A stretch of 64,000 bases of DNA from IMG/VR virus record IMGVR_UViG_3300037512_001384, positions 6,442 through 70,441 of that record; one strand, written 5' to 3'. Numbering within the stretch: position 1 is the stretch's first letter; each line of letters begins with the position of its first letter. A program made the translations under genes and the position numbers. The notes below the pieces were generated by a model. The model made no database searches. It saw only the letters and a list, made by a program, of their open reading frames with translations, and was not told the DNA's origin. Below, piece after piece: positions 6,151 to 47,486 of the stretch. This stretch comes from a virus.

Positions 6151-6162
6151 TCAAGACATACT

Positions 6163-6688: not shown

Positions 6689-6691
6689 TAC

Positions 6692-14334: not shown

Positions 14335-16063
14335 CGAATTAGACAAGCAACTGCAGTATATCAAGACTTGCCCTCACTATACGGTCTTTGCCATAGACCT
14401 TTTCTGTGGCGCGGGCGGTGAAACGACAGGTATTGAACTGGCTATGGTGGATGGTAAGAAATGCGCCAAGGTCATAGCCTGCGTCAACCATGATCCGAAC
14501 GCTATTGCATCTCATGCTGCGAATCACCAATCCGTTCTGCATTATATCGAAGATATACGTACCCTCAACTTAGGCGGATTGGAGCAGTTGACGGAAGCTG
14601 TCCGGACTTTTCATCCAGGTTCATATATCCTGTTGCACGCTTCACTTGAATGTACAAACTTCTCCAAGGCCAAGGGTGGTCAACCACGTGACGCAGACTC
14701 CCGAACTCTGGCTGAGCATCTATTCCGATACATTGAGGCTATCAGACCGGATTATATCCAGATAGAGAATGTGGAAGAGTTTATGTGCTGGGGAGAGCTC
14801 GACAAGAACGGCAAGCCTTTGAGTAAAGACCGGGGTAGCAGTTATGTTCGTTGGGTGAACAACGTCAAACATTATGGGTATGATTTTGACTACAGGTTGC
14901 TTAACGCAGCTGATTTTGGCGCATACACAAGCCGTAAGCGCTTTTTCGGTCTTTTCGCCCGTCATGGATTACCGCTTGTCTTCCCGCATCAGACCTATGC
15001 GAAGAACGGTGACGAAGGTGGGCTTTTCCATCAGTACCGGAAATGGAAACCTGTACGTGAGGTGTTAGACCTGCAGGATGAAGGGGAAAGCATCTTTGGT
15101 AGAAAGAAACCGTTATGTGAAGCTACATTGGAGCGCATCTATGCAGGATTGGTGAAGTTTGTGGCAGGAGGTAAGCAGAAATGTGACGCCTGGATCCTAA
15201 AGTACAACTCCATGAATAAAGATAGAAGCCATAATGCACCCTCTATCGACGAGCCCTGTCCTACTGTTGCTGTGCAAAACAGATTAGGTTTATGCAAGTG
15301 TAATTTCCTGAGTCTGTATTATGGTGGCGCAGAGCATAACCAATCTATTGAAGAGCCAGCGGGTACTGTGACAACCAAAGACCATCATGCTTTCCTTTCG
15401 GTTCATTATGGACACGGTTGTAATAGAGATATTGACAAGCCTTCACCTACTGTGACATGCCAGGACAGAATTGAGCTTATTTCAAGCCAGTTCTTTGCCA
15501 ATGAGTATAGTGGCGGAGGACAGCTTTCTGATATAGAGAAACCTTCACCCGCTATACTTACCAAACCGAAACAGCATTTAGTCACGGCTAAACGCTGGCT
15601 GGCGAATACCAACTTCAAGAATGTGGGTAGCAGCATAGATTCTCCAGCACCGGTAGTGACAGCCAACTATAAGTACCACTATCTGATGAATCCGCAGTTT
15701 GCATCTGCAGGAGGTTCCATAGACAAGCCCTGTTTCACATTGATAGCCCGGATGGACAAGATGCCTCCGTATCTGATAAGCACAGAGAGCGGAGAAGTCG
15801 GAATCGCTGTATATGATTCGGATTCATCAATGACGTGCAAGGTCAAAGAGTTCATGGCTGCATACGGTATAGTGGATATCAAGATGCGTATGCTGAATGT
15901 GGGTGAACTTAAACGTATCATGGGCTTCCCTGATGATTATGTGCTTATCGGCACTCAGGCAGAGCAGAAGAAATATATAGGCAATGCCGTGGAGGTAAAT
16001 ATGTCCCGTATGTTATGTGAAGCACTTGCTACTAAATTAAACCTCACAAGACAAGCAATATGA
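14327..16063 (+). CDS. DNA (cytosine-5) methyltransferase
   Basis: Motif I AIDLFCGAGG; ECTNFS (motif IV-like); QIENVEEF (ENV motif VI); long variable region; 578 aa. Confidence 0.8.
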   Translation: MIDELDKQLQYIKTCPHYTVFAIDLFCGAGGETTGIELAMVDGKKCAKVIACVNHDPNAIASHAANHQSVLHYIEDIRTLNLGGLEQLTEAVRTFHPGSYILLHASLECTNFSKAKGGQPRDADSRTLAEHLFRYIEAIRPDYIQIENVEEFMCWGELDKNGKPLSKDRGSSYVRWVNNVKHYGYDFDYRLLNAADFGAYTSRKRFFGLFARHGLPLVFPHQTYAKNGDEGGLFHQYRKWKPVREVLDLQDEGESIFGRKKPLCEATLERIYAGLVKFVAGGKQKCDAWILKYNSMNKDRSHNAPSIDEPCPTVAVQNRLGLCKCNFLSLYYGGAEHNQSIEEPAGTVTTKDHHAFLSVHYGHGCNRDIDKPSPTVTCQDRIELISSQFFANEYSGGGQLSDIEKPSPAILTKPKQHLVTAKRWLANTNFKNVGSSIDSPAPVVTANYKYHYLMNPQFASAGGSIDKPCFTLIARMDKMPPYLISTESGEVGIAVYDSDSSMTCKVKEFMAAYGIVDIKMRMLNVGELKRIMGFPDDYVLIGTQAEQKKYIGNAVEVNMSRMLCEALATKLNLTRQAI

Positions 16064-16392
16064 ATATTATTTGTATGACAGAGGAGTTCTGGGCGAACTC
16101 ACAATTCAGCGTAGCAAGATATTATGGACGTATAGGAATTGACGGGCATGATTTCTTGATTGTAAACAAGGAAGGTAAGGATGTGTTCCAGTGTTCCGCC
16201 GAAGCAGAAAAGGATGGTCGTGAACATGCCATTGAGCCGGGTGAACCTGCAGACCTTTGCCGTTCTGATTTCGTCAAGTATTACAAGGAACTCAAACGTG
16301 ACAGATTCCTTGAAGTGTTGCGCGAGAATCCCAATGCCAGCGATAAGGAGCTATTAGAAATATTCAAACAACTGACAGCAAAGAAGAAATGA
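16060..16392 (+). CDS. hypothetical protein
   Basis: 110-aa ORF. Confidence 0.5.
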   Translation: MNIICMTEEFWANSQFSVARYYGRIGIDGHDFLIVNKEGKDVFQCSAEAEKDGREHAIEPGEPADLCRSDFVKYYKELKRDRFLEVLRENPNASDKELLEIFKQLTAKKK

Positions 16393-16522
16393 AGTGCTAT
16401 TTCAACAACCGGACAGTGAATGATAGTGTTTGTTCTTCCTGTACGCTAAAGAATGAATGTGTTGCTTATAACACACGGCAGACAGAGCATGTCAGTTCCG
16501 GAACCCCAGTAAACGTTTATAT

Positions 16523-17125
16523 ATGAAACTTGCATCACATAATACCTTCAGCTATCTGCCGGTACGCAAATGGTGGATGAAGCCTTTCGCATGGATGGCA
16601 CGCTGCCAGAGAATAACCACATATCAGCAGTTTAGATGTGGCGCTCGCTTCTTTGACTTAAGGGTCAGATTTGACAAGAAGAGAGAGCGAATAATATGTC
16701 ATGGGCTTATTGAGTATATGGACAATGAAGATACTTTGTCCGTTGCTCTTTCGATTCTTGATCATAAGGGTAGCTGCGGGATGAGGGTGGTCCTCGAAAC
16801 GAACAAGAGTGATGAGTTTCAGGAAGGTTGTTTCCGCCAATACTGCAGACACCTTCAAAATGAGTTTCCTAACATCATCTTCTGTGGCGGTAACAATCGC
16901 ACTGATTGGGGTTGCAAGCATCCCATATACGATTTCGGCAATCCACTTCCGGATATTGAGCATAAGTATTCAAGTACAACGAGCCTCTTTCCGAACGGTC
17001 CCAAGTGGCTGAGGCGTATCGATGACCTCTGTCCTTGGTATTATGCCAAACATCACAACAAGGAGAATCTTGAGAAGGGGACGAGCCATGAGTTTCTGAT
17101 GATTGACTTTGTTGATATACAGTGA
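16523..17125 (+). CDS. hypothetical protein, PI-PLC X-domain-like phosphodiesterase signature
   Basis: SHNTFSY...RCGARFFDLRVRF...ICHG resembles the catalytic core of PLC-like phosphodiesterases. Confidence 0.4.
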   Translation: MKLASHNTFSYLPVRKWWMKPFAWMARCQRITTYQQFRCGARFFDLRVRFDKKRERIICHGLIEYMDNEDTLSVALSILDHKGSCGMRVVLETNKSDEFQEGCFRQYCRHLQNEFPNIIFCGGNNRTDWGCKHPIYDFGNPLPDIEHKYSSTTSLFPNGPKWLRRIDDLCPWYYAKHHNKENLEKGTSHEFLMIDFVDIQ

Positions 17126-17439
17126 TGAAGAAATTAGACGAGTTATGTATTGCCAACGCTGTGGTCGCTCATGGTACTATGGCGGGTCTTCCTGTATATG
17201 AGCCTCCATATTATTGGTGGATAACCGATATAGAAAGGCGCATGTGGGTGCGAGAAGAAATGCGCAGGTATGGCAATAAATTACTGCATTTGCAACTCAG
17301 TAAGTACAATAAGCGTTACACAAAAATAGCTAATGAGTTGTTTGTACACAGCAATATGGGTTTTGCCGATATTGGTAGAACCCTTGGCTATCAGGGTTCA
17401 CTCTGGATGGCAAACGAATTTAACAAACACACAATATGA
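17122..17439 (+). CDS. hypothetical protein
   Basis: 105-aa ORF. Confidence 0.45.
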   Translation: MMKKLDELCIANAVVAHGTMAGLPVYEPPYYWWITDIERRMWVREEMRRYGNKLLHLQLSKYNKRYTKIANELFVHSNMGFADIGRTLGYQGSLWMANEFNKHTI

Positions 17440-17675
17440 AACCAGTAGAGTTTGAGGGCGTAAATACGACATACGCAAAGAATCAACCAGAGTATCTTCC
17501 ATTACCGGCACAGAGGATTAACGACAATACAATCATCACATGCTGGGAGTTGACCGATGAAGAAATCAAAGTGCTTAAAAAGACCAAGAAGCTGTGGCTT
17601 GGTGTGATGACATTCAACAAACCCTTGCAGCCGCTTCTTCCATCAGTATCAAAACAAGACATTTTAGAAGCATGA
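17436..17675 (+). CDS. hypothetical protein
   Basis: 79-aa ORF. Confidence 0.45.
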   Translation: MKPVEFEGVNTTYAKNQPEYLPLPAQRINDNTIITCWELTDEEIKVLKKTKKLWLGVMTFNKPLQPLLPSVSKQDILEA

Positions 17676-18304
17676 ATAAGTTACAAAAATTCTTCAACTT
17701 TTTCAACCAGAAGGTACTTATATGTGACCTTGACGGCACACTGATAGAAACAAAGAGCGGTAAGACTTTTCCTGAGAATGAGGACGATTGGAAATTCAAG
17801 AAGAACATCAGGGAGGCCATCCAAGAGTATAATCCCAAGTACGTTTTCATCGTAACCAATCAAGGTGGTATCGAAAAGGGTTTCGTCGATGAAGGTAAAT
17901 TCGCAACTAAACTGAGGGTTATTAAGGATGAAATCCGGTCGTGGGGTGATTATATTGTCTATGCCACTTACTGCACCTCCAACGATAAGAACTGTAAGTA
18001 TCGCAAGCCCAACACCGGAATGATAGATTGGTTGCGTCACGATTATGTTGGCGGCAATGACTTCAACCCTCGTAATGCGCTCATGATCGGCGATGCAAGC
18101 GGTCTTATAGGTCAGTTCTCAGATACAGACTTACAGTGTGCTCGTAATGCCGGTATCAAATACATTGATGTTGCAGATTTCATTAGGGCTATGGTGCCTT
18201 GCAGCATGTGCGATTCATGCAGTCTGGGTAGGGACATACCCGTATCGCGTCCATGTGACTTTAGTAAGAGATTCAGGCTGAAGGCTAACCTTTTAAACAA
18301 GTGA
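17672..18304 (+). CDS. HAD-superfamily (subfamily IIIA-like) phosphatase, PNK 3'-phosphatase/GmhB-like
   Basis: Motif I ICDLDGTLI, CKYRKPNTGM (RKP motif) and IGDASG; start codon overlaps the upstream stop (ATGA). Confidence 0.6.
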   Translation: MNKLQKFFNFFNQKVLICDLDGTLIETKSGKTFPENEDDWKFKKNIREAIQEYNPKYVFIVTNQGGIEKGFVDEGKFATKLRVIKDEIRSWGDYIVYATYCTSNDKNCKYRKPNTGMIDWLRHDYVGGNDFNPRNALMIGDASGLIGQFSDTDLQCARNAGIKYIDVADFIRAMVPCSMCDSCSLGRDIPVSRPCDFSKRFRLKANLLNK

Positions 18305-18308
18305 AATA

Positions 18309-18620
18309 ATGAAAGCAAGAAACACTGTTACAGGCGAAGTATTTAGGGATTTTGGAATCTCTAAGGAATTTGGGACAGCATCAGGAATTGATGAGAATAA
18401 CAAATTGAGATTCTTTACGCCTGCAGATGGCGCTTTTGAGATAATTGATGAACCAGAGGGGAAAGATTGGGATGAGTTCAGATGTGATGCTGCGAGTCGA
18501 TTTATGGCGGCTGCTTATGGTAAATACGGAACGCTCTTGGAACCGCGTATAACTGCCAAACAAAGCATTCATTACGCCGACATTCTTATTGAAGAACTTA
18601 AAAAACAAAGTGATATATGA
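18309..18620 (+). CDS. hypothetical protein
   Basis: 103-aa ORF. Confidence 0.45.
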   Translation: MKARNTVTGEVFRDFGISKEFGTASGIDENNKLRFFTPADGAFEIIDEPEGKDWDEFRCDAASRFMAAAYGKYGTLLEPRITAKQSIHYADILIEELKKQSDI

Positions 18621-18799
18621 GAGACAACAACAAAAGTAGAGGCTTGGGTCTTTGCGGAGTGCTGACGGTAGTATTCGTCGTTCTTAAACTGACCCATAAC
18701 ATTGATTGGTCATGGTGGTGGGTGCTTGCTCCATTATGGGGTGGCATAGCTCTTATCATTGCCTTGTTACTAATCTTGTTAATCATTAAACTGTTATGA
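18617..18799 (+). CDS. small membrane protein (two predicted TM helices)
   Basis: GLCGVLTVVFVVL...WWWVLAPLWGGIALIIALLLILLII. Confidence 0.4.
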   Translation: MRDNNKSRGLGLCGVLTVVFVVLKLTHNIDWSWWWVLAPLWGGIALIIALLLILLIIKLL

Positions 18800-18996
18800 C
18801 TGTAAATTTCACAAACGAAAAGGAAGAGCATATTAAGAGCTGGCCCAATTGGACCGGAGTCGTTCCTCAAATCGGAGATACTGTAATCCTCAACTTTGGC
18901 GATTACAATGAAATCCCGGAGAAGCATACGGTTACAGGTCGAGTCATCGATGGAAAGAAGCCGGACAAGGTTACTCTTGTCATAAATTGGGATTGA
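18796..18996 (+). CDS. hypothetical protein
   Basis: 66-aa ORF. Confidence 0.4.
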   Translation: MTVNFTNEKEEHIKSWPNWTGVVPQIGDTVILNFGDYNEIPEKHTVTGRVIDGKKPDKVTLVINWD

Positions 18997-18997
18997 T

Positions 18998-19465
18998 ATG
19001 GATGCGGGTATTCATTTGGGTATGGATAAAGCCCATAAGGAGTTGGAGGATGAAGCCAAGCGCATGATAGCAAGTTCGATTCTTGACGATTCACCTAAAC
19101 CGGTCTTTGTCGCTGCAGACTTTGGACAAGGAAAAGATTTGAGTTCGCTCATGCTTATAGATAAAGGCACCGGTAAAGTTGTCAGTTATGACAAAACAGC
19201 TGTCATTTCCATAAATGAGAACATGAAGATGGAAGTGCGCAAGAACGATTTTTCATATACGCCTCCTTCCGCAGAATGGAATGCCAAACTCAATTTCACC
19301 CATAAGCAGGCACGCCAGTTCCGAAAACTCAGAAGGGAAGTTGGTTTACACAAGTCACGTATTCCACGCAAAAGAAAGAAGAAGTTTAAGGCTTTTATGC
19401 GTATGACGATGCTATGCTGGCCAGATAGCGTATTCAGCCAAGTTTGCGATTATTCTAATTATTAA
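18998..19465 (+). CDS. hypothetical protein
   Basis: 155-aa ORF followed by a terminator. Confidence 0.45.
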   Translation: MDAGIHLGMDKAHKELEDEAKRMIASSILDDSPKPVFVAADFGQGKDLSSLMLIDKGTGKVVSYDKTAVISINENMKMEVRKNDFSYTPPSAEWNAKLNFTHKQARQFRKLRREVGLHKSRIPRKRKKKFKAFMRMTMLCWPDSVFSQVCDYSNY

Positions 19466-19470
19466 CCGAC

Positions 19471-19497
19471 AGGCATTCCGACAAGGATGCCTTTTTT
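19471..19497 (+). terminator. rho-independent terminator
   Basis: AGGCAT...ATGCCT stem followed by TTTTTT. Confidence 0.6.
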
Positions 19498-19509
19498 ATT
19501 TCCATAACA

Positions 19510-19806
19510 ATGAAGACTATTTTCGTTTCAATCCCCTGCACCGATCACATGGCAGAGCTGCCAGCAAGGTGCAAAGCCGCGCATGAGAAGTATGATGCGC
19601 CCGGTGTTAAGGTATTCACGCCTAAAGATGTGGTTCCGGATTCAAGCACACCCTATGCCACATGTCTGGGTAAGACCATTGAGAAGGTTCTGGAAGTTGA
19701 TGAAGTTGTCTTCGCCAACGGCTGGGCTGATTCCAAAGGTTGTACTATGGAAATGCACGCCGCACAGACCTATAACAAGAAATGGATTGTAGATGTCAAG
19801 ATTTGA
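19510..19806 (+). CDS. hypothetical protein
   Basis: 98-aa ORF. Confidence 0.45.
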   Translation: MKTIFVSIPCTDHMAELPARCKAAHEKYDAPGVKVFTPKDVVPDSSTPYATCLGKTIEKVLEVDEVVFANGWADSKGCTMEMHAAQTYNKKWIVDVKI

Positions 19807-19827
19807 TAACGATTAAAACCAGGAGAT

Positions 19828-20028
19828 ATGACTGACGCATTATGCTTTATTGCGCTCGTGATAGCCGCTTTCGCTGTCATAATTGCTGGCGCTGTATTCA
19901 TCGCAGTAAGATGCCTCGCCGATGATATTAGGGAGCAGATTGAAGGTTTTGAAAAGCGTCTGGACAACTTCGCTGAGGCTCGGATGTTTGAAAGGAAAGA
20001 ACAACGATATCACCATGACGAAAAGTGA
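19828..20028 (+). CDS. small membrane protein
   Basis: ALCFIALVIAAFAVIIAGAVFIAV hydrophobic helix. Confidence 0.35.
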   Translation: MTDALCFIALVIAAFAVIIAGAVFIAVRCLADDIREQIEGFEKRLDNFAEARMFERKEQRYHHDEK

Positions 20029-20211
20029 ATTTCTCTCAGAGTACACAGCCTTACTGACAAGGTATTGTGTGAACAACAAGGATTATGAGAACATTCAGCA
20101 TAGGGATATTCTCAAAACAGACATTCCCATAAAAGCAAGGAGCAGCGTAAGAGTGCAGCTGTCCACTTACCTGACAGCAACAGATGAATAGATAACCTAA
20201 AAGAAATACTT

Positions 20212-20736
20212 ATGAAACGTGATGTGTGGAAAGACGTAAAAGGCTATAAGGGTCTTTATAAGATAAACCGTGAAGGTGTTGTCATCAACAAACGAGGCAA
20301 GGTGGTAGGGACAGAGTTGTCGCAACGAGGTTACGTGCGCGTCAGACTGTATAAGAACAACGTCAAGAAGAATCATAAGGTTCACCGCTTGGTAGCCCAG
20401 GCTTTCATCCCCAACCCCAGACGTCTGTCACAGATAGACCATATCAATGGTGATAAGACGGACAACAGAGTCCAGAACCTTCGATGGATGGACAACAGAG
20501 AGAACAACAACGCATTCAAGAGTGAACATCTGAACAAGCAGCCGGTGGTAATCATCGGCTGTTTTGGTGAAATACTGAGATACTTCTCTTCATTACGCGA
20601 AGCAGCATCTGCCATAGGTGTCAGCAGGCATGGTATTTCAGCCGCCTGCCGTGGATTACAGAAGACATCAGGCGGTTATTCATGGCGTTTCGTGACTGAA
20701 GCTGAATTTGCTTTGTTCAACAGGAAGGCTGTATGA
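20212..20736 (+). CDS. HNH homing endonuclease (HNH_3 + NUMOD-like tail)
   Basis: WKDVKGYKGLYKINREGVV, VHRLVAQAFIPNP and HINGDKTDNRVQNLRWM (HNH). C-terminus VVIIGCFGEILRYFSSLREAASAIGVSRHGISAACRGLQKTSGGYSW (NUMOD-like). Confidence 0.8.
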   Translation: MKRDVWKDVKGYKGLYKINREGVVINKRGKVVGTELSQRGYVRVRLYKNNVKKNHKVHRLVAQAFIPNPRRLSQIDHINGDKTDNRVQNLRWMDNRENNNAFKSEHLNKQPVVIIGCFGEILRYFSSLREAASAIGVSRHGISAACRGLQKTSGGYSWRFVTEAEFALFNRKAV

Positions 20737-20770
20737 CATATACGGCCCGGAGAAAAACAATATCATTCTA

Positions 20771-21745
20771 ATGTATCGAAAAAAGAAACCGGCAGGTTTT
20801 GATGAACGTCTTCAGTGGTCTATCAATTTGTTGAAGAAAGCAGAAAAACTCGCTTTGCAATATGATCCTGATGACGGATTCTATTTAGCCTTCTCAGCAG
20901 GCAAGGATTCCCAAGCATTATATCACATCGCCAAACTTGCAGGTGTCAAGTTTCAGGCTCACATGAACTTTACGAGTATTGACCCTCCAGAGGTTATTCG
21001 CTTCTGTCGCGAACATTATCCTGATGTCATAACTCATGCACCCGAGGACAGCATCTACAATATTGCCGTAAACGGGAAATATCTGCTGCCTTCACGTATC
21101 ATTAGATGGTGCTGTGCCATTCTTAAAGAGACTGGAGGTGCCGGTACGGTCTGTCTTACAGGTGTACGCAGACAGGAAAGCATCAGACGCTCCAAACGTA
21201 ACAGCGTTGAAGTTAGCAACAGCTCCTTCTCCGGGGACCTCGATGCCTTCGAGACGTGGAGAAAAGAGAAGATTGCCAAGAAGATTCAGCATCTCAACCA
21301 GGACCAATTCAGTGAACAAGACGAGGAACAAATCAGATGTATCGGCGGCAAGGATAAAATCATTGTCAATCCGATAATAGACTGGTCTGAGTCTGATGTC
21401 TGGTATTTTCTCAACGAAGTTGTGAAAGTGCCTCACTGCTCGCTATATGACAGAGGATATAAACGTATCGGATGTATCTGCTGTCCTATGGCAAATTATA
21501 AGCAGAAACTCATCGAATTGGCGGATTACCCCCATGTCAAGCGCAACTGGATAAATGCCATCAAGCGGATACGCGAGCAGGGTATCGCAAAGAATATCCT
21601 GACAGAGAACTATTTCGGCAATGGTACGGAAGACGAGATATGTGAGAACATCTTCCAATGGTGGATCAGCGGGAAATCCTATGACGAATGGTATGCTGAG
21701 ACATTCCTTCAGCAAAGGATTGATTTTGGAGAGGAACAACAATAG
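20771..21745 (+). CDS. PAPS-reductase-family PP-loop ATPase with C-terminal Cys cluster (IbrA/DUF3440-like)
   Basis: PP-loop AFSAGKDSQAL; C-terminal RIGCICCPMA; sits directly upstream of the flanked MTase. Confidence 0.65.
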   Translation: MYRKKKPAGFDERLQWSINLLKKAEKLALQYDPDDGFYLAFSAGKDSQALYHIAKLAGVKFQAHMNFTSIDPPEVIRFCREHYPDVITHAPEDSIYNIAVNGKYLLPSRIIRWCCAILKETGGAGTVCLTGVRRQESIRRSKRNSVEVSNSSFSGDLDAFETWRKEKIAKKIQHLNQDQFSEQDEEQIRCIGGKDKIIVNPIIDWSESDVWYFLNEVVKVPHCSLYDRGYKRIGCICCPMANYKQKLIELADYPHVKRNWINAIKRIREQGIAKNILTENYFGNGTEDEICENIFQWWISGKSYDEWYAETFLQQRIDFGEEQQ

Positions 21746-21771
21746 AATGATATTGTAACCGGCAGTAGCAA

Positions 21772-21789
21772 ACAATATGTGGGTATTGT
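21772..21789. repeat. left inverted repeat flanking MTase A (ACAATATGTGGGTATTGT)
   Basis: 17/18 match to the reverse complement of 22468-22485 (13-bp perfect core ATGTGGGTATTGT). Confidence 0.55.
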
Positions 21790-21798
21790 ATTTCCATT

Positions 21799-22455
21799 TC
21801 AGAATAATTCGAGTTGTGTGATTGTGGTGCCGTCTTGCAATTTGGTCTCTCCGAGGCATTCCTCCCTGAACCGCTCTTCCTGGAGGTCATAGTATTCTTT
21901 GCTTATCTCACAAGCGTAGAAGTCAAACCCCATCTTATAGGCAGCGATGCGGCTTGAACCACTTCCAAGATGGCTGTCGAATATCTTGTCACCCGGCTTT
22001 GCGAAGGTCTTTAGCAGATAGGCGTATAGTTCTATTGGTTTACAGGTGGGATGCCATACAACCTTGTCGATGTGACCGCCTCGGTTGGATATTGTGATCA
22101 GTTTGGCTGGTTTATCAAATGACGTCCAGGCAAACTCACATTGACTGAAGTTCTCCCATACCTGCTGCTTATCCCAGATGACAAAGCAACGGCAAGGAGG
22201 TAAGGGAAAGTAGTTACCTCCCCAGATAATCTGGTTCTTGCTGACGCGGAATAACTCCTTCCAATATTCTGTGGGGGGTGCAACATCCCAACTCATATCA
22301 TGGCGGTTGAGGGTGCGATTCTTAAGTTTCCCGCTCCCTTGAACAGAGGATTTCTTGAGCTGATACGGCGGGTCCACTATCGCAAGGTCAAAGAATGCGT
22401 CTGGAAGCGTCTTCATATAGGCTAAGCAGTCTGTATTGAACACTTCGCTAACCAT
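21799..22455 (-). CDS. N6-adenine/N4-cytosine DNA methyltransferase (beta class), MTase A
   Basis: DLAIVDPPYQ (motif IV), VWHPTCKP, FDSHLGSGSSRIAAYKMG (motif I); 218 aa; whole gene bracketed by inverted repeats. Confidence 0.8.
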   Translation of the reverse strand: MVSEVFNTDCLAYMKTLPDAFFDLAIVDPPYQLKKSSVQGSGKLKNRTLNRHDMSWDVAPPTEYWKELFRVSKNQIIWGGNYFPLPPCRCFVIWDKQQVWENFSQCEFAWTSFDKPAKLITISNRGGHIDKVVWHPTCKPIELYAYLLKTFAKPGDKIFDSHLGSGSSRIAAYKMGFDFYACEISKEYYDLQEERFREECLGETKLQDGTTITQLELF

Positions 22456-22467
22456 TGTCTTTGGGTA

Positions 22468-22485
22468 ACAATACCCACATAATGT
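22468..22485. repeat. right inverted repeat flanking MTase A (ACAATACCCACATAATGT)
   Basis: Lies in the 31-bp gap between the divergent start codons of MTase A and MTase B. Confidence 0.55.
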
Positions 22486-22486
22486 A

Positions 22487-23245
22487 ATGCTTCATGGGGA
22501 TTGCCTTGAACTTATGCGGGATATTCCGGATAAGAGTATCGACATGATTCTGAGTGATCCGCCTTATGGAACGCTAAACAAGAGCAACCCGGATGCGCAA
22601 TGGGATAAGGAAGTTGACCTTAAGGCATTATGGAGGCAATACAAGCGCATCATCAAGCCCAACGGTGTCATTCTTCTGTTCGGTCAAGGTGTCTTTGGAG
22701 CCAAGCTGATTATGAGTAACCCGAAATGGTTCAGATATGACTTCGTTTGGGATAAGGTCAGGAAATCCAATTTCCTTAACTGTAAGAAGATGCCGATGCG
22801 TCAGCATGAGCAGATATTCGTGTTCTACGGCAAGCCGCCTCTGTATAACCCTCAGATGGTCCGGTGCAAGGAGTCTCAGAAGAACCACAGCAGAGGCACG
22901 ACAGGACGAGAGCAGAAGACCTCCTGTTACGGCAAATACAACGTGACGGAAACCATAGATACCGATTACAAGTATCCCGGAACTATCGTTCGGTTTCCCA
23001 AAGGGCACAGTAAGGAAGACTGGAAGCACGGGACAACCAAACCGGTCAATCTCTTGCGTTATCTCATCAGGACATATTCCAAAGAGGGTGATGTCATCCT
23101 TGACAATTTTGCAGGATCCGGCAATACACTGATTGCCGCCATCAAAGAGAAGAGAGACTGGATAGGTATGGAGATATCGGATAAGTTCTATGCTTTGGCT
23201 CAGCAACGTATAAATGACGAACTAAGAGAACCAACTTTATTCTGA
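22487..23245 (+). CDS. N6-adenine/N4-cytosine DNA methyltransferase (beta class), MTase B
   Basis: DMILSDPPYG, WKHGTTKPV, ILDNFAGSGNTLIAAIKEKRDWIGMEI; 252 aa. Confidence 0.8.
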   Translation: MLHGDCLELMRDIPDKSIDMILSDPPYGTLNKSNPDAQWDKEVDLKALWRQYKRIIKPNGVILLFGQGVFGAKLIMSNPKWFRYDFVWDKVRKSNFLNCKKMPMRQHEQIFVFYGKPPLYNPQMVRCKESQKNHSRGTTGREQKTSCYGKYNVTETIDTDYKYPGTIVRFPKGHSKEDWKHGTTKPVNLLRYLIRTYSKEGDVILDNFAGSGNTLIAAIKEKRDWIGMEISDKFYALAQQRINDELREPTLF

Positions 23246-23246
23246 A

Positions 23247-23459
23247 ATGAGCAAACAACAACGAGGTGGCGTAATCCATTTTCGCGACCGTGACAGGGAT
23301 GCATGGCCGCAATCTGATTTCAGGGATGTATATGTCAAGCCTAATATCAAGCTGCCTGAAGCACCCAAGAATCACATGATTTTAACTTGTAACCCTTCCG
23401 GGCTAAATATTTTCCATAAGAATTTCATCAACGACAACAATGAAAGAGATTCCCGATGA
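23247..23459 (+). CDS. hypothetical protein
   Basis: 70-aa ORF. Confidence 0.35.
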   Translation: MSKQQRGGVIHFRDRDRDAWPQSDFRDVYVKPNIKLPEAPKNHMILTCNPSGLNIFHKNFINDNNERDSR

Positions 23460-23715
23460 GCTGTACAACCAATTAGACTACTTGGGGTTGATTCCCAACG
23501 AAGTCCGTTCAACCAATGTAGGCAAGAGTGATTACTCCAAGCATTTCATCCAGCCCTGGACAATATGGTTGGATGCCAATCTCAACCCGTGGGATGCGGA
23601 TATAGTCAAGCGCATATTGAGGACAAAAGAAGGTGATTCCCGTATGATGGACTATGAGAAAATCATCCATATATGCGAGGAGCGTATCAGACAGCTTAAG
23701 TTCACTGCGAAATGA
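23440..23715 (+). CDS. hypothetical phage protein (DUF3310-like)
   Basis: SDYSKHFIQPWTIWLDANLNPWDADIVKRILRTKEG pattern. Confidence 0.4.
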   Translation: MKEIPDELYNQLDYLGLIPNEVRSTNVGKSDYSKHFIQPWTIWLDANLNPWDADIVKRILRTKEGDSRMMDYEKIIHICEERIRQLKFTAK

Positions 23716-24377
23716 AAAAGGTTGTAATCAAAACCGTGATGGAATATGAAGGTATGGAGTGGACATCACGGGTTGTGGACTTTGGTATTAGCCTTATGGT
23801 GGCGGCGGCTATCAACGAAGTGATTTGCGCCTTTATCATGGTGAAGGAATCCGACCTGTTCCGTCGTTCCGTCAAGCATAATGCGACAAGGGCTGTCAAG
23901 GAGGCTGAAGCCAAGCAACGTGAGTTGAAGGAATCGGCCGGGGATGGAGAGCTGTTCGCGTCTTACTCCGATGCAGTCATAGACAAGGCGCGTAACGACA
24001 TAACATTGCTGCAGCTTGCCATCAAGCAGGCGCTTGACACGCATAAAGTCAAACATTCAGATATCCTTGCTCGCGCTGAATGTGCGAGGGTATTATTGGA
24101 TATGTCAGCGAAGCAGTTCGCCAATACCATCAGGACTGCCGAATGCAGGTATCTGAAAAACTTCTATGAGCACTTCAAGGAGTTTGACATGAAGCATCTG
24201 CATGATGCATGGAAGATGGTTTGTACGGAACTGTTCGTGGGTTATAACGTTGACCTCAACACACCGACGGTGAAGGGGCTGTTCGAGTCTATGCTTAACA
24301 AGTTCTCCAACGGAGAGTACATATATGGTTGTCTGGACCAGGCGTATGAGGAATATCCCGAGAAACGACCTAATTAA
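23712..24377 (+). CDS. hypothetical protein
   Basis: 221-aa ORF. Confidence 0.5.
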   Translation: MKKVVIKTVMEYEGMEWTSRVVDFGISLMVAAAINEVICAFIMVKESDLFRRSVKHNATRAVKEAEAKQRELKESAGDGELFASYSDAVIDKARNDITLLQLAIKQALDTHKVKHSDILARAECARVLLDMSAKQFANTIRTAECRYLKNFYEHFKEFDMKHLHDAWKMVCTELFVGYNVDLNTPTVKGLFESMLNKFSNGEYIYGCLDQAYEEYPEKRPN

Positions 24378-24391
24378 ACATCAAAATAACT

Positions 24392-25162
24392 ATGGGAAAA
24401 TTTATCATTTATTTCAAGGAGAACAGAAACGGGCATTGCGCTTATCGTTTCGTCAAGAGTTATCGTAAGGGTGGTTTCTTAAGGAAAGAGCGTATTGAAT
24501 ATACGCTGGACTTGGTTCAGGCTATGGACTTTCCGGATATGGAAGTCGTAGTCAAAGCCCACAAGCGTTTGTCTGCAGATTATCCCGATGCGGCTGTGAA
24601 CTATATGGATGTCGAGGAGTTCAGGGACAGATTCGCACTGCATCGGTTCTGGCTGATATGCAGGCATGACAATAACGGTCAACCAATCGAGTATTACAGC
24701 GGCACCGGTAAGGGACATTTCTCCTGGACGAACGACATCACTAATGCCCTGTTGGGTCTGGATGCGAAGACGCAGGAAGAAACTTTCAGGCGTATCCGTC
24801 TGACCGGTGACAGGATTACCCTCATCCCTGTCTATCTCGACCTGATCAACGACCTTCTGAACCCCAACTTCATCATCACCTGTACCAGCAAGACCGGTGA
24901 ACAGAAGACCAAGTTCTTCGCCCGCAGGGAGGGTAACAGACTGAGGTTGGTTGAGACATCCGATGCCGCCAAGAAATTCAACTACCGCGAAGGACTGGAG
25001 GCGTTCGAGACTCTGAAGATAAACAACAAGAACTTCTTATATGCCATGCTTCCTGCATTCAAGGAGAATGTGTCATATAAGAATCTGGAAGCCTATTGCA
25101 AGGCAAACAACCCGTCTCGCGCCCTGCAGATGGAGATTAAGCTGGACGCTCTGAATAAATGA
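24392..25162 (+). CDS. hypothetical protein
   Basis: 256-aa ORF. Confidence 0.5.
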   Translation: MGKFIIYFKENRNGHCAYRFVKSYRKGGFLRKERIEYTLDLVQAMDFPDMEVVVKAHKRLSADYPDAAVNYMDVEEFRDRFALHRFWLICRHDNNGQPIEYYSGTGKGHFSWTNDITNALLGLDAKTQEETFRRIRLTGDRITLIPVYLDLINDLLNPNFIITCTSKTGEQKTKFFARREGNRLRLVETSDAAKKFNYREGLEAFETLKINNKNFLYAMLPAFKENVSYKNLEAYCKANNPSRALQMEIKLDALNK

Positions 25163-25165
25163 CGT

Positions 25166-25426
25166 ATGGACCAGACAAAAGCGCAGAAACTCGTTGATGA
25201 CCTTATGGAACTCATCAACAAGGAGAAGCTGGAAGGTTCTGAACGTCTCGCGGTCGTTTCGATGTTCTTCTCCACGGAGATAGCATGTGCGTTCTTGTCC
25301 GGCGTGATAGATGACACGCTGCCTACAGACCAGGTTCTGGACGGTGCGTTTGAAATCATACGTAAGGAGGTGAAGGATGCCATCTCACATGGCGGAGTGG
25401 CAGTGGATATTAAGGGAGATTGTTGA
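25166..25426 (+). CDS. hypothetical protein
   Basis: 86-aa ORF. Confidence 0.45.
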   Translation: MDQTKAQKLVDDLMELINKEKLEGSERLAVVSMFFSTEIACAFLSGVIDDTLPTDQVLDGAFEIIRKEVKDAISHGGVAVDIKGDC

Positions 25427-25442
25427 CGTGAAACATAAGACT

Positions 25443-25667
25443 ATGACTGAGCAGGAGGGACAGGAGATCCTGGACCGTATATCCGAGTTGTTCAACGAAC
25501 ATGAACTCACACTCGGTGACGCCTTTCGGGTACTGTCCTCCATGTTCATCAGTCTCACGAATGACGTTCAGAAGAGATATCCGAAAGAGAATGTCATTGG
25601 CGAAGCGGTCAAGTATCTGAATATCATCCGATATAACGTACTACCTCCTAAAGACAGACCGAACTGA
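25443..25667 (+). CDS. hypothetical protein
   Basis: ORF MTEQEGQEILDRISELF...; start chosen after the upstream stop (track 25377). Confidence 0.35.
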   Translation: MTEQEGQEILDRISELFNEHELTLGDAFRVLSSMFISLTNDVQKRYPKENVIGEAVKYLNIIRYNVLPPKDRPN

Positions 25668-25668
25668 T

Positions 25669-26619
25669 ATGGCACGATTGAAGAAAGCAGAGAGGGAACG
25701 TAGGGAGAAAGAGAGGATACACCGCGAGACTGACTGTATCAGACGTAAGGTCGTGGGTGATTTCTTTATCAGCTTCTCACGTCATATACGTCCTTGGCTC
25801 CTTGGTATGGCGGAACGGTATATCGAGAGAGGTATATACCCGATGCTGGCGCAGTCTATCCTGCCTTCCTATTACGAGGACAAGAATGACAAGGAGATAG
25901 CTGCTTTCGCGTCCCTGTTGCTGGACCCCGAATCAGAGTTTGACAGGATCCAGGCGTTCCGCGAGATGATGGGGGAGCATCCGTTTCTTTGGTTTGGTAA
26001 AAGGGATTATGTCATACTCTCTACCGGTGCCAATCAGAACAAACTGATAGGCGGCGTCCCGGGATGGAAGATAGCCAGGCTGATGGAGAAGCTATGGCAG
26101 CGAGGACGTATGGACGCTCAGGAAGGTGACGGTACATACTATGTCCTTACACCTATCATGGTGACACTGAATGTGAAGTACCTCAACTGGCTTCCGGAGG
26201 ATGCCGTACTTGATATGATAGGTGACTGCATTCCCAAGAAAGAGAGTCTTTATCGAATAAGGCTCGCATTGCTCGTTCTTTTGACGCCTGACGGCATCGG
26301 TCAGGATGTGTGGTCAGTTGAACCGGAACGTCTGAGATGTCCACTCTCAACCAAAATAACACCGTTCCTTGAAACGTGGTTTCCCGACTATACGAGATAC
26401 GGTACAAGGGAAGAGGCTATTGAGCTGTTCGACATGCCTCATCATTATGATTTCTTCTATGCTTATCTGGCTTACATGGAGATAGGCAAAAGAAAACCCC
26501 GCGAGTGCAGCAGGCTCGCCACTACATACCGACGATGGTATGACCGTGGCGATGATAAATACAGACCTGCTGTCTGGCGGGAAATAATGGACAGGGTGGA
26601 ACAACAAGACCTTGCTTAG
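25669..26619 (+). CDS. hypothetical protein
   Basis: 316-aa ORF, last gene of the plus-strand block, followed by a bidirectional terminator. Confidence 0.5.
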   Translation: MARLKKAERERREKERIHRETDCIRRKVVGDFFISFSRHIRPWLLGMAERYIERGIYPMLAQSILPSYYEDKNDKEIAAFASLLLDPESEFDRIQAFREMMGEHPFLWFGKRDYVILSTGANQNKLIGGVPGWKIARLMEKLWQRGRMDAQEGDGTYYVLTPIMVTLNVKYLNWLPEDAVLDMIGDCIPKKESLYRIRLALLVLLTPDGIGQDVWSVEPERLRCPLSTKITPFLETWFPDYTRYGTREEAIELFDMPHHYDFFYAYLAYMEIGKRKPRECSRLATTYRRWYDRGDDKYRPAVWREIMDRVEQQDLA

Positions 26620-26627
26620 TCTTATCG

Positions 26628-26667
26628 TGTGGGGAGTAGCTGTCATGCTGCTCCCCACTTTTTTTTG
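26628..26667. terminator. rho-independent terminator between convergent genes
   Basis: GTGGGGAG...CTCCCCAC stem followed by TTTTTTTT. Confidence 0.7.
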
Positions 26668-27510
26668 TTATGTGCCGGTGAAGAACCCCATACCGCTCAA
26701 GTCGAGATTATCGGCATCCACGCAGATGTAACGTGATGTCATGTTCTCGTTCTTGTTGTGGTTCATCAGGGCGCAGATGACGGCACGCGGCACACCGCGC
26801 AGAGTCAGGTTGGTGGCGAAGGATCTCCGGGCCGTATGACTCCCGACATACTCGTACTTGGGTCGCGTCTGCGTCTTACCGTGATAGAATATCTTGGTTT
26901 CCTGACTGATACCGCATCGGCGACAGATACGTTTGATGACATCGTTATAAACGGCTCTGTTATGTTCGCCGGTGGGCTTGTACTGCAGGTAACGCATGAG
27001 GTTGCGATGTATCGGTATGGAGCTCTCCACCTTCGTCTTCTGACTCACATAACACAGTCTGCCGTCAATGATGTTATGCTCGGTGAATGACTTGACATCG
27101 GACGTCCTGGCACCGCAGTAGCACTCGATGAGGAAAGCCGCCTTGATGTCCCGTTCCGTGTCATTATGGGGAACATATCGTTCGATACGCTCTATCTCCT
27201 CTTCCGTGAGATAGACGTTCTGTGACGGCACTCTCTTAGCCTTCAATTCCTTCCCGGGATTCTTACAGGGGAATAAATTCTCATCCAGATAAGCGGAAAG
27301 GAAAGCCTTCAATACGGCGAGATAGGTACATGCCGTATTACCGGCTACGTTGTCACAGATATTATCCCTCATCTCGGACAGGTTAAGCGTCGTGAGGTCG
27401 CTCCACTGCACCTCCTGAACGCCTATCGCATCACGCATATACCGAAGGATATGCGCATAGCTGGGTTGTCTTCTGACAAACTCCTGCTCAAAACTTAAAA
27501 TTCCGTTCAT
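26668..27510 (-). CDS. small tyrosine site-specific recombinase (Xer/invertase-sized, 280 aa)
   Basis: C-terminal catalytic region HTARRSFATNL...RGVPRAVICALMNHNKNENMTSRYI (R...HxxR...Y). No large N-terminal arm-binding domain. Confidence 0.8.
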   Translation of the reverse strand: MNGILSFEQEFVRRQPSYAHILRYMRDAIGVQEVQWSDLTTLNLSEMRDNICDNVAGNTACTYLAVLKAFLSAYLDENLFPCKNPGKELKAKRVPSQNVYLTEEEIERIERYVPHNDTERDIKAAFLIECYCGARTSDVKSFTEHNIIDGRLCYVSQKTKVESSIPIHRNLMRYLQYKPTGEHNRAVYNDVIKRICRRCGISQETKIFYHGKTQTRPKYEYVGSHTARRSFATNLTLRGVPRAVICALMNHNKNENMTSRYICVDADNLDLSGMGFFTGT

Positions 27511-27696
27511 ATCATTTGGTTTTTATTGATTACGACGAGTGAAGCCGGACAATATCCCATCGTCCGGCTCCTGATTAACCTAAATACTTATGTGGTAAAA
27601 ACGTACACACGAAAGTATGTGTAAACATGTTGACCACACTGCTACGACTATGGTAATCTTGCTGCCGGAGGACGTTTTACCGTCATCCGGCATTGT

Positions 27697-29073
27697 TTAC
27701 AGGCGCAGTGTACCCGCTCTTGCCGCCTCACAGCGTCTCAGCACCTCCTTACGGTCACGTATGAGTATCCTGGCTCTCATATCCATACCTTCGCCCGTGG
27801 GCTTATCCAGGACACCTATCGCAACCATCGTGAGGAAGTCCTCGATTGCCATACGGCGTGTAAGAAGGAAGGGGAACATACCGAAGTTACGTGGCGTCAA
27901 CTCTGTCCTGCCTTGTGACTCCTGCAGGAAGAGGCATTCGGGTTGTCCCTTGATAGTAACGGTGACACATGGCGCATCCTCCTGTCCCGGGATGTCAAGC
28001 ACGGAACCGGTAAATGTACCTCTGCAGACAAGGTTGAGCAGTATAGCATCCTCGATGTACTCCGTATCTGCATATCCGCATTGTACGCGCACGTCATCAA
28101 TGCCGTCTGAGTAGAGCATATCACCCTTACCCATCAGGTCCTCGGCACCGGTATGGTCGAGGATGACACGCGAATCAATACCCGATGCGACGCGGAACGC
28201 GATACGTACCGGGAAGTTCGCCTTGATGTTTCCTGTCACGATGGTCGCCGACGGACGTTGCGTGGCTATGATCATGTGGATACCGACGGCACGGGCTTTC
28301 TGTGCGATACGGCATATCATACGCTCCATATCCTTCCCGGCTGTCATAATAAGGTCGGCATACTCGTCTATGACCACGATGCAGTAACGCATGTAGTCTT
28401 CACCGTTGAGCTTGTCATTATACTCTTTGATGTTACGTACTCCTTTCTGCGAGAGAAGGGTGTAACGGTACTCCATGAGGTTAATGACACGCTGCAGGAT
28501 AGCGACAGCATCCTCTGTGGTCGTGGCTATGTCATCGGCGAGATACTTGTGCCAGAGAGGAGCGTAGATGTTGAGCTCAACCTGTTTGGGGTCGATGAGC
28601 ACCAACTGCATCTCTTCCGGTGTGCGCTTGCTCATCAGTGAGAGCAGCAGCATGTTCAGGCATACCGACTTACCTTGACCGGTCGCACCGGCAATAAGCA
28701 GGTGCGGCATCTGTGTGAGGTCACGGATGAAGAGTTCTCCCTGTACCGTCTTGCCTATGGCGCATGGAAGTGCCATCCTGCAGGACTCGTAATCGACATG
28801 ATGCAGAACGCTGTCCATGTGTACTATCTGACGTTGGAAGTTGGGAACCTCAATGCCAATCGTACCGCCTGCGAGCGGTCCCATGATGCGTACCGACTCC
28901 GTACCGACCGCCAAGGCAAACTCATCAGCGAGTCTGCGTACACGTGTCATATTCACACCCATATCCGGTCTGAACTCATACAGGGTGACGCTGGGTCCTT
29001 TCGTGACTCTCCAGCTCAGCGGTTCAATCTTATGAACCCTGAGCACCTGTTCTAACTTGTAAGTGTAATCCAT
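27697..29073 (-). CDS. FtsK/SpoIIIE-family DNA translocase (motor + gamma-like domain)
   Basis: Walker A IAGATGQGKS; Walker B IVVIDEYADL; IATQRPSATIVTGNIKANFPVRIAFRV; C-terminal winged-helix-like EDFLTMVAIGVLDKP. Start MDYTYK is preceded by the conserved array upstream element. Confidence 0.8.
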   Translation of the reverse strand: MDYTYKLEQVLRVHKIEPLSWRVTKGPSVTLYEFRPDMGVNMTRVRRLADEFALAVGTESVRIMGPLAGGTIGIEVPNFQRQIVHMDSVLHHVDYESCRMALPCAIGKTVQGELFIRDLTQMPHLLIAGATGQGKSVCLNMLLLSLMSKRTPEEMQLVLIDPKQVELNIYAPLWHKYLADDIATTTEDAVAILQRVINLMEYRYTLLSQKGVRNIKEYNDKLNGEDYMRYCIVVIDEYADLIMTAGKDMERMICRIAQKARAVGIHMIIATQRPSATIVTGNIKANFPVRIAFRVASGIDSRVILDHTGAEDLMGKGDMLYSDGIDDVRVQCGYADTEYIEDAILLNLVCRGTFTGSVLDIPGQEDAPCVTVTIKGQPECLFLQESQGRTELTPRNFGMFPFLLTRRMAIEDFLTMVAIGVLDKPTGEGMDMRARILIRDRKEVLRRCEAARAGTLRL

Positions 29074-29320
29074 AATGATTGTTTGAGTTATTATTGGCGG
29101 AGCAGCTGATGTCACTCAATCAGCTCCAGGACGTGGGATTTGTCCTTTGGAAAAGTGATGCGCACCCATGTCAATGAGTACGCATCTGTTTAACTCTTTA
29201 AATACTACAACTATGCGCCTCACGGCGTTCGTATGTAATAATTAGCACAAAGATAAGGATTCGCCCTTATCCTTGTATGGCGATGTTAATCCTTAACATA
29301 GTTAATGTACGGATTTAACA

Positions 29321-29593
29321 TTAGTAGTGTTGCTGAACGAGGTTGTCGATAGAATCAAGCACCTCATCCACGTCACGTATCACTCCCATCTTACCGAGAT
29401 CTTCCACGATACATTTAAGTCTGACGTAGTTCTTAACCCCCACACGTGTGGCTCCTACGCCGTTTTTTACGAATGACGGGCGTATGGAATGGAAGTGCTT
29501 ACGGAAGAACTGTTCAAGCGACATGAAGCCCACTGTCTTGCTCTTCTGTTCCCTGTTGCTGAAATACTCAGCGGCTAATTTCCTCAGTCTCAT
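29321..29593 (-). CDS. hypothetical protein (array gene)
   Basis: 90-aa ORF with an upstream element variant. Confidence 0.45.
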   Translation of the reverse strand: MRLRKLAAEYFSNREQKSKTVGFMSLEQFFRKHFHSIRPSFVKNGVGATRVGVKNYVRLKCIVEDLGKMGVIRDVDEVLDSIDNLVQQHY

Positions 29594-29844
29594 AGTTACT
29601 TCTCAATTAGTTAAGTTACTACCCTGTTAATTACTGACCGCCTGCACCGTATGAGCCTTGAAGTGGAATAATGCATCTGCAGGTGTCATAGGAATCGGGG
29701 TTGAAAGTATTTCCTCCTTACCCCGGCGGTACACCCTCCATTGGGTGTACTTCTTCTGGGTTGTTTTCTCTTCTTTCATTGCGAATCATTTTAGTTAGAC
29801 ATAATGGCGATTATAGCTGCGTTTCCACAGCTATAACCTTCTTG

Positions 29845-30435: not shown

Positions 30436-30497
30436 AATTGATGTTTTTTAGGTTAAACGTGGTTCCCTGCAAGCATTTCCGTACTTGCAGGAATAAA

Positions 30498-47483: not shown

Positions 47484-47486
47484 GCT

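Follow-up and report, generated by a model that had tools for sequence, protein, structure and literature searches.

The segment studied here occupies positions 21772-22485 of a 64,000-nucleotide stretch of viral DNA (positions 6,442 to 70,441 of the IMG/VR record IMGVR_UViG_3300037512_001384), which is referred to as the window. It contains a single gene, MTase A (21799-22455, minus strand), enclosed by two 18-bp sequences in inverted orientation, and it is named inverton B to distinguish it from two similar elements, A and C, of the same phage. MTase A encodes a 218-aa beta-class N6/N4 DNA methyltransferase with DPPY and GSGSS motifs (PF01555, N6_N4_Mtase, 4.8e-14; phrog_67, 3.6e-37). The left site (21772-21789; ACAATATGTGGGTATTGT) reads ACAATA-TGTGGG-TATTGT as outer arm, spacer and inner arm, and the right site (22468-22485; ACAATACCCACATAATGT, reverse complement ACATTATGTGGGTATTGT) reads ACAATA-CCCACA-TAATGT. 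The spacer of the right site is the reverse complement of that of the left site, and the single mismatch between both sites lies in the outer arm of the right one. The left site lies 9 nt past the stop codon of MTase A and the right one 12 nt before its start codon, within the 31-bp gap preceding the gene MTase B, whose start is at 22487. Because the non-coding DNA of the interior (21790-22467) amounts to only 21 nt (9 + 12), the MTase A cassette is taken to be promoterless. An initial annotation of this DNA, made from its letters, had proposed that 18-bp inverted repeats bracket MTase A and that the right repeat fills the gap between the divergent starts of both methyltransferase genes, and the coordinates and gene gaps were confirmed. 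The identity of 17/18 that it gave was likewise recounted, although the perfect run is of 14 bp and not 13 bp, as the lone mismatch is at position 4.

We considered whether such a repeat could have arisen by chance. Allowing up to three mismatches, the 18-mer of inverton B was found in the window at its two places only, while shuffled sequences gave 0.04 occurrences. Inverted pairs matching at 17/18 or better and separated by 100-2000 bp numbered two, compared with a mean of 0.225 in 40 Markov simulations, and the second of them is the adjacent and related pair at 20757/21739. The expectation of 0.05 given in the initial annotation was somewhat low. Together with the counts of the site family and the negative-control loci described below, the shuffles and simulations rule out a chance repeat.

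Natural copies of the locus were gathered from public assemblies by look-up of the exact MTase A protein, then of MTase B, of an HNH gene and of a gene near 7 kb, and their states were called with flank and interior probes. The contig to which the window itself belongs was recovered in this way (ENA ERZ27256849 k141_4620388, 107,074 bp). Contig L002 (ENA ERZ27257203) is collinear with window positions 13653-31006, with two single-nucleotide polymorphisms (SNPs) outside the sites, except for two segments, 20757-21756 and 21772-22485, each of which is inverted in situ. Alignment blocks stop exactly at the 18-mers, so that the breakpoints of both segments lie inside the sites. Inverton B is flipped, with its left site as the natural breakpoint, in L002, L016, L019, L020 and L021, and it has the same state as the window in L001, L003, L004, L018 and L202; identity to the window is 99-100%, and the flipped contigs come from other metagenomes. 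The MTase A protein is identical on contigs of both orientations. One sample, ERZ27257204, gave both of them as separate assembled contigs (L004 in the window state, L019 flipped). In addition, a site forms the terminus of at least six contigs, which stem from different samples; such breaks are what assemblers produce when both orientations coexist. An assembly artefact was excluded, as the repeat, with its 18 bp, falls short of the k-mer length used in assembly (141 for the k141 contigs) and the results agree between independent assemblers and between samples. Exact-pattern scans for the inter-cassette and right junctions gave no matches in JGI metagenome contigs (two scans) or in IMG/VR, a result that is uninformative since contigs break there or the records lie outside the collection.

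The flipped contigs show directly what the initial annotation had foreseen, namely that a whole gene now antisense to its operon would be placed by inversion in line with it and directly ahead of MTase B, and they supply the flipped arrangement that it had suggested looking for in related phage genomes. The segment is bounded by inverted repeats and occurs in both orientations in otherwise identical natural DNA with breakpoints inside these repeats, and 21772-22485 is therefore almost certainly a natural invertible element. The explanation that we favor overall, with a probability of roughly 80%, is that it is a programmed inverton with promoterless MTase A as cargo, that it is one of three such switches of this phage, and that a recombinase of the phage is the likely catalyst.

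Inverton A (20757-21756) lies immediately upstream and exactly brackets a PAPS-reductase-like gene (20771-21745, plus strand; 324 aa; PF01507, 9.7e-19; phrog_424) which in the window is in line with the operon. Its left site (20757-20774; ACAATATCATTCTAATGT) reads ACAATA-TCATTC-TAATGT and its right site (21739-21756; ACAATAGAATGATATTGT), which overlaps the stop codon of the gene, reads ACAATA-GAATGA-TATTGT; they match at 17/18 positions with the spacer TCATTC. The ATG assigned to this gene by the gene caller (20771-20773) falls inside the inner arm of the left site, TAATGT, and this arm travels with the cassette; the arms TAATGT/ACATTA supply an outward-reading ATG on either strand. Between invertons A and B there is a fixed linker of 15 bp (21757-21771) with constant orientation in all states, as window positions 21739-21789 align with 8087-8137 of L002 in the same direction.

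Inverton A was flipped in L002, L018, L021, L201, L202 and L203 and had the window state in L001, L003 and L200. When the states of both elements were read on single contigs within this one phage species, whose members are 99-100% identical, A was in line and B antisense in the window and L003, A antisense and B in line in L002 and L021, and both antisense in L018 and L202. The presence of three of the four linked states in one species shows that A and B flip independently, and in this sense the independent switching of two elements put forward by the initial annotation was borne out. It could be argued that the orientations are instead fixed differences between co-circulating strains, produced by rare inversions at short repeats and with no programmed switch, as all the evidence comes from assembled contigs and each long contig is in one state. 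However, two inversions distinguish genomes that have about 2 SNPs between them in 17 kb, three linked states exist in one species, both states of B occur in one sample and contigs break repeatedly at the sites. Moreover, phages with a DNA identity of only about 74% share this architecture, with perfectly matched spacers, and display all four states. Efficient homologous recombination also requires more than 18 bp. For these reasons fixed strain differences appear quite improbable, and programmed inversion is preferred.

The third element, inverton C (6160-6707), is presumably the first of the two invertons to which the initial annotation referred, and it is intragenic. Its left site (6160-6177, ACTTTA-TAGGCA-TATTAT) and right site (6690-6707, ACAATA-TGCCTA-TAATGC) match at 15/18 positions with the spacer TGCCTA. 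They enclose an invertible segment (6178-6689, minus strand) with the N-terminal half of a third N6/N4 methyltransferase, MTase C, which carries an SPPY motif and covers positions 1-133 only of the PF01555 profile. The C-terminal half, with an FMGSGTT motif, is fixed outside the invertible segment (6695-7108, plus strand), and PF01555 was also detected on the corresponding 134-aa product of L005. When the gene is intact, the right site lies within the coding sequence. In the window MTase C is disrupted, with its halves on opposite strands, and an in-silico flip restores an intact enzyme. An intact gene of 329 aa is indeed present in L006 and L008, and the split form occurs in the window, L007, L009 and L010. 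The suggestion that the repeats of the two invertons are unrelated, and that different recombinases might be involved, did not hold. Invertons A, B and C all use ACAWTAT...TAWTGT arms and differ only in the central spacer, which makes one recombinase with spacer-specific pairing the simpler reading.

Each 18-mer is itself a lox-like palindrome, ACAWTAT-N5-TAWTGT, in which inverted arms of 6-7 bp surround an asymmetric spacer. A search of the window with the frame ACAATA-N6-TATTGT gave 5 matches against 0.14 expected, and with ACAWTA-N6-TAWTGT (W at positions 4 and 15), allowing one mismatch at most, 6 matches were obtained compared with 0.8 in shuffles; five of these six are at cassette borders. 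The spacers are private to each element (TCATTC in A, TGTGGG in B and TGCCTA in C). A logo of 78 site sequences from the listed pairs of the window and its relatives showed conservation of positions 1-7 and 13-18 (ACATTAT...TAATGT) and variation at positions 8-12. In all 28 listed cognate pairs (window and eight relatives) the spacers were identical at 6/6 positions and every mismatch fell in the arms, while non-cognate combinations had at most 4/6 positions in common. This is the pattern expected of tyrosine recombinases, as their strand exchange needs homology in the spacer.

The place of the exchange can be narrowed by the behavior of the arm mismatches. The mismatch at position 15 of the left site of inverton A, in its inner arm, travels together with the cassette. 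The one in inverton B, in the outer arm of its right site, remains in place after inversion, and of the three in inverton C the two in outer arms stay and the one in an inner arm swaps. Given this sorting of the mismatches, the exchange must fall within positions 4-14 of the 18-mer, which include the central spacer. A crossover map based on L024 and L025 was dropped, as the nested site pairs of L025 make the flipping pair ambiguous. With respect to sites of the lox, FRT and dif type, inverted arms around an asymmetric spacer were found, as were identical partner spacers with exchange in that region; arms of 11-13 bp were not.

The 18-mers might also be regarded primarily as regulatory palindromes, either operators for dimeric proteins or RNA hairpins at gene borders, with inversion as a by-product. 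A palindrome with 6-N6-6 spacing is typical of operators bound by helix-turn-helix dimers, the sites are exactly at gene borders and one arm provides a start codon. But neither operators nor hairpins need a central 6 bp that is identical and inverted at both ends of each gene and different between genes, which was true of 28/28 cognate pairs, and natural inversion breakpoints lie inside the sites. A primarily regulatory role is thus highly improbable, and recombination sites remain our interpretation of the 18-mers.

Relatives were fetched from IMG/VR and GTDB with an alignment of 32 sequences of the candidate recombinase of this phage (described below), and the fifteen closest loci were compared by tblastn. 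Nine of these 15 loci (51-60% recombinase identity) contain homologues of MTase A and of the PAPS reductase, each flanked by inverted ACATTAT-N5-TAATGT 18-mers, and all four combinations of cassette orientation with respect to the operon are represented. Furthermore, L024, L028, L030, L031 and L103 have a third adjacent cassette encoding a radical SAM protein. As a negative control, IMG/VR loci of other phages with MTase A homologues were inspected, and 79 of 80 had no flanking inverted repeat (best 11-13 of 16), the lone exception bearing the same site family. In about 2.1 Mb of loci from recombinase homologues with at most 44% identity, the density of the site pattern was that of the background, about 0.2 per 10 kb, which indicates that the site family is clade-specific.

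The organization of these loci bears on the possibility of integron-like capture, in which the main task of the sites would be the insertion and excision of cassettes of one gene each, with inversion as just one outcome. Promoterless single genes stand in a row within an operon, and their number and content vary in the relatives (two or three cassettes, radical SAM gene present or absent, nested pairs, the tandem sites of L104 and the orphan of L103). Against this, every cassette is bounded by an inverted pair and never by a direct one, so inversion is possible and excision is not; no empty site, cassette-free hybrid site or circular cassette was observed in the loci compared, nor was there evidence of features specific to IntI, at which no examination was aimed. 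Cassette capture as the main function is hence improbable, and the sites are better understood as inversion sites. Some variation in the arrangement of sites was recorded: in L104 one site occurs three times in tandem, at intervals of 27 bp (16038-16109), L025 (6913-7680) and L026 (10973-11737) have nested inner and outer site pairs around the same methyltransferase, and L103 has a partnerless orphan site (17474-17491). These arrangements hint at turnover of cassettes or sites.

Next to inverton A the window has a free-standing HNH/NUMOD endonuclease gene (20212-20736), located at the place taken by the third invertible cassette, that of the radical SAM protein (phrog_9298), in L024, L028, L030, L031 and L103. 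Homing by this adjacent endonuclease was excluded as the origin of the inversions, as relatives without an HNH gene at that place flip the same cassettes.

The consequences of inversion for expression were examined through the gene order. From upstream of the window start to 26.6 kb all genes are on the plus strand and tightly packed, apart from the inverted cassettes. The fixed gene directly downstream of inverton B, MTase B (22487-23245, plus strand), encodes another N6/N4 methyltransferase (PF01555, 1.3e-33). Scans for promoters facing MTase A gave sigma-70-like matches at chance level and no Bacteroidetes TAnnTTTG motif, and those for sigma-70, TAnnTTTG and intrinsic terminators near the cassettes gave nothing above chance, a weak type of evidence given that simple consensus patterns are crude. 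A promoter for MTase A in the 5' region of MTase B, which the initial annotation had named as the finding that would make the repeats incidental, was accordingly not seen in these crude scans. Taking together the packed plus-strand operon, the 21 nt of non-coding DNA and the chance-level promoter matches, the simplest reading is that orientation sets the place of the cassette in the operon transcript. Once flipped, MTase A would be transcribed within the rightward operon (ON), and in the window state only its antisense strand would be read (OFF). It is quite likely that 21772-22485 works as such an orientation-dependent switch. In the window the PAPS-reductase-like gene would be ON, MTase A OFF and MTase C broken.

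As for the mechanism, a site-specific recombinase would pair both 18-bp sites and exchange strands within or beside the spacer, so that the gene flips. Private spacers would restrict recombination to cognate sites, as in heterospecific lox variants, making the switches independent, and three independent switches could give up to 8 DNA-modification states per phage population. The cargos (methyltransferases, an enzyme of the PAPS-reductase family and a radical SAM enzyme) plausibly have DNA-modification functions, and the PAPS-reductase family includes DndC. The benefit would be one of bet-hedging: modification would guard the phage against host restriction-modification (R-M) but expose it to modification-dependent restriction, and mixed modification states would hedge between R-M hosts and hosts with modification-dependent nucleases.

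The likely enzyme would be the phage's own Xer/Cre-like tyrosine recombinase, encoded at 26668-27510 (minus strand). It is a 280-aa protein of two domains with no arm-binding domain, and PF00589 matched it with 47.6 bits against a cut-off of 27.1. In the alignment of 32 homologues, residues R135, K158, H225, R228, H251 and Y261 were invariant. The AlphaFold2 model (predicted local distance difference test score, pLDDT, of 87.5) matched the core of lambda Int, XerA, XerH and Cre with a Foldseek probability of 1.00, and the Tn1549 integrase was also matched. The catalytic R-K-H-R-H/W-Y set and the two-domain fold place it in the tyrosine recombinase superfamily. It gave no equivalog-level match to XerC, XerD or XerA, as its NCBIfam scores were 24-38 bits compared with cut-offs of 220-335. 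Its homologues number in the hundreds and were found in Bacteroidales-rich gut or rumen samples, on contigs about 100-110 kb long; distant ones, annotated as integrases, occur with 38% identity in the cultured Bacteroides phages LoVEphage, BI-TP1 and PV4-TP1. Over the 74 kb inspected (of about 107 kb), which extend 2.8 kb upstream of the window and 7 kb past its end, no gene had another recombinase domain. In the same 74 kb no gene had a Resolvase or Recombinase Pfam domain, so that a serine invertase of the Hin/Gin/Cin/Pin type was not found.

A seventh site of the family, 45493-45510 (ACAATA-CAATTA-TAATGT; ACAATACAATTATAATGT), is unpaired and lies in an AT-rich divergent intergenic region of 900 bp upstream of a D5-type primase gene. 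A solo site at the equivalent position was found in 8 of 12 related IMG/VR loci, some of them from contigs without invertons at the recombinase region. This site may be the primary one of the recombinase and act as attP or in resolution. Together with the recombinase it looks like a conserved core, and the invertons look like add-ons borrowing the same arms. The gene adjoining the recombinase, at 27697-29115 (minus strand), encodes an FtsK-like DNA translocase, and this adjacency is kept in the window and in 10 of the 15 closest loci covered by tblastn; the translocase is a possible partner of the recombinase. A second gene with an FtsK/SpoIIIE motor, fused to a PD-(D/E)XK nuclease domain, is located at 571-2658 beside RecT.

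Several points weigh against the overall explanation. The assignment of the recombinase is circumstantial, and the inverton-bearing relatives were found through a recombinase search, so their co-occurrence is biased. In the relatives L022, L023, L027 and L204 there is a recombinase with no site pair within 10 kb, and L204 (P0003), the closest recombinase relative fetched (74% identity), has no methyltransferase or PAPS cassettes and no sites within that distance. The gene inventory spans 74 kb and leaves about 33 kb of the phage contig outside. The arms of 6-7 bp are well below the 11-13 bp of characterized tyrosine-recombinase sites, and the flanks are unrelated. No single contig of this phage species has A and B both in line, a combination seen only in the relative L030. 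Switching within a clonal lineage, and its rate, are deduced from near-identical contigs and one mixed sample, the ON and OFF states from gene order, and the functions ascribed to MTase A and to the PAPS-reductase-like protein are predictions.

Those points that concern the enzyme are compatible with an inversion that is site-specific but catalyzed by another recombinase, either a host Bacteroidales invertase or Xer protein or one encoded in the remaining third of the phage genome, the phage recombinase then being an integrase, as its homologues in cultured Bacteroides phages are annotated, or a resolvase. However, the site family is restricted to the clade with at least 51% recombinase identity and falls to background density in more distant relatives. 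The solo site in the window and in the related loci is of the same family, and in this phage the variant at position 4 of the arm (A for T) occurs in the inverton sites as well as at the solo site. Besides, the 74 kb inspected hold no second recombinase domain. A different enzyme therefore seems unlikely, and it is probable that the recombinase at 26668-27510 is the invertase.

Judged by analogy, the closest mechanistic relative of these elements is Cre/lox with heterospecific spacers. The Cre/loxP system of P1, with the variants lox511 and lox2272 and the FLEx design, likewise relies on a phage tyrosine recombinase of two domains without an arm-binding domain, and its sites have inverted arms around an asymmetric spacer that orients them. 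Inverted lox sites also yield inversion, and matching spacers are needed, so that pairs with different spacers act independently. In contrast, the arms here are of 6-7 bp instead of 13 bp, the site of 18 bp instead of 34 bp, and several natural inverted pairs are present within one genome. The Foldseek identity of Cre to the phage recombinase is a negligible 12-14%, and the link between enzyme and site proposed here is an inferred one. A likeness to XerC/D-dif with FtsK (and to XerH/difH and XerA) can also be recognized, as the best family and fold matches include XerA, XerD and XerH, a gene for an FtsK motor is adjacent and the solo site is palindromic with a 6-bp center; the difference is that the NCBIfam Xer scores are far below the curated cut-offs, and the roles of the FtsK-like protein and of the solo site are putative here.

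With regard to biological role, and again by comparison, these elements come closest to the "epigenetic invertons" of bacterial Type I hsdS loci and to the intragenic invertons of Bacteroidales. In bacteria phase-variable DNA methylation is well established, both as defense and as gene regulation. Inversions of hsdS in Type I R-M systems, performed by a tyrosine recombinase, vary the methylation of the population, with one enzyme acting on several inverted-repeat pairs (PMC7672463, PMC7096588, PMC7641763). Examples are the SpnD39III/cod locus of S. pneumoniae with PsrA/CreX and the phase-variable Type I R-M system of B. fragilis. Those are bacterial defense loci that shuffle halves of specificity domains, whereas the phage, on the opposite side of the arms race, flips whole modification genes or splits one of them. 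Invertible promoters and intragenic invertons have been described in Bacteroidales (PhaseFinder; Chanin et al., 10.1101/2023.03.11.532203; Milman et al., PMC9881135). They share with the present elements the host order and the short inverted repeats, and inverton C is likewise intragenic and breaks and rebuilds a coding sequence. They are, however, chromosomal and mostly promoter flips, while here the elements are phage-borne and a whole promoterless gene is flipped within an operon, in a head-to-tail array. Integrons (IntI, attC) have in common the arrays of promoterless single-gene cassettes, the palindromic tyrosine-recombinase sites and the outside promoter, but their cassettes have a single attC and are excised and inserted, unlike the present ones, which have an inverted pair with a private spacer and are flipped in place.

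Programmed inversion carried by phages, with mixed virion populations, is represented by Mu G/Gin, P1 C/Cin, p15B Min and e14 Pin. These systems differ in relying on serine invertases and a Fis enhancer, with sites of 26 bp and a crossover of 2 bp, and in acting on tail-fiber genes and so on host range; here there is no serine recombinase in the 74 kb inspected, the sites are like those of tyrosine recombinases and the cargo is for DNA modification. To our knowledge, the textbook cases of programmed phage inversion are limited to tail fibers and serine invertases. Our literature searches retrieved no description of invertons, or arrays of them, with phage methyltransferase cassettes. In these searches viral invertons appeared only as tentative predictions ("potential viral invertons") in a 2026 methods paper (PMC13501310). 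What would be new in the present case is that a phage varies its own DNA-modification enzymes combinatorially by whole-gene flips, with very short lox-like sites and spacers that keep the switches independent.

Extending this to the whole clade of Bacteroidales phages of about 100-110 kb, we lean slightly towards a switchboard of the Cre/lox style, in which one recombinase would serve the solo site, for integration or genome resolution, and a set of spacer-coded and mutually independent pairs, each with one promoterless modification gene (for a methyltransferase, a PAPS-reductase/DndC-like enzyme or a radical SAM enzyme), so that one lineage would continuously give 2^n epigenetically distinct virion types. 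If this is true, it would be the phage-side mirror of bacterial phasevarions, a natural precedent for the logic of heterospecific spacers and a counter-defense bet-hedge. Such switching would help to explain how one phage lineage copes with hosts bearing R-M or modification-dependent defenses, and it predicts methylome differences among virions of one phage. It would also offer a genetic tool for Bacteroidales, consisting of an 18-bp site, a 280-aa recombinase and natural orthogonal spacers. Assemblies of phages of this type break or appear "mis-oriented" at the sites.

The host of this phage of about 107 kb is a rumen or gut member of the Bacteroidales. It has no cultured close relative, and megablast of 19500-24500 against GenBank phages gave no match. 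Besides the invertible genes, the phage has a fixed anti-restriction set composed of a 578-aa C5 methyltransferase with a DUF5131 partner (13555-16063), MTase B (22487-23245) and an ArdA homologue (39005-39997). After 46 kb the G+C content climbs from about 45% to about 53% (46000-64000). This change is not a host junction, as the region belongs to the same phage and contains the primase, the large terminase (55360-58152) and structural genes. Finally, L002 diverges from the window just after 31006 (31006-31007), and its 223-bp tail (17355-17577) had no match among the sequences compared, which marks a strain-variable region. Near the point of departure there is an imperfect inverted repeat of 33 nt (29191-29223 and 31134-31166) with 82% complementarity.

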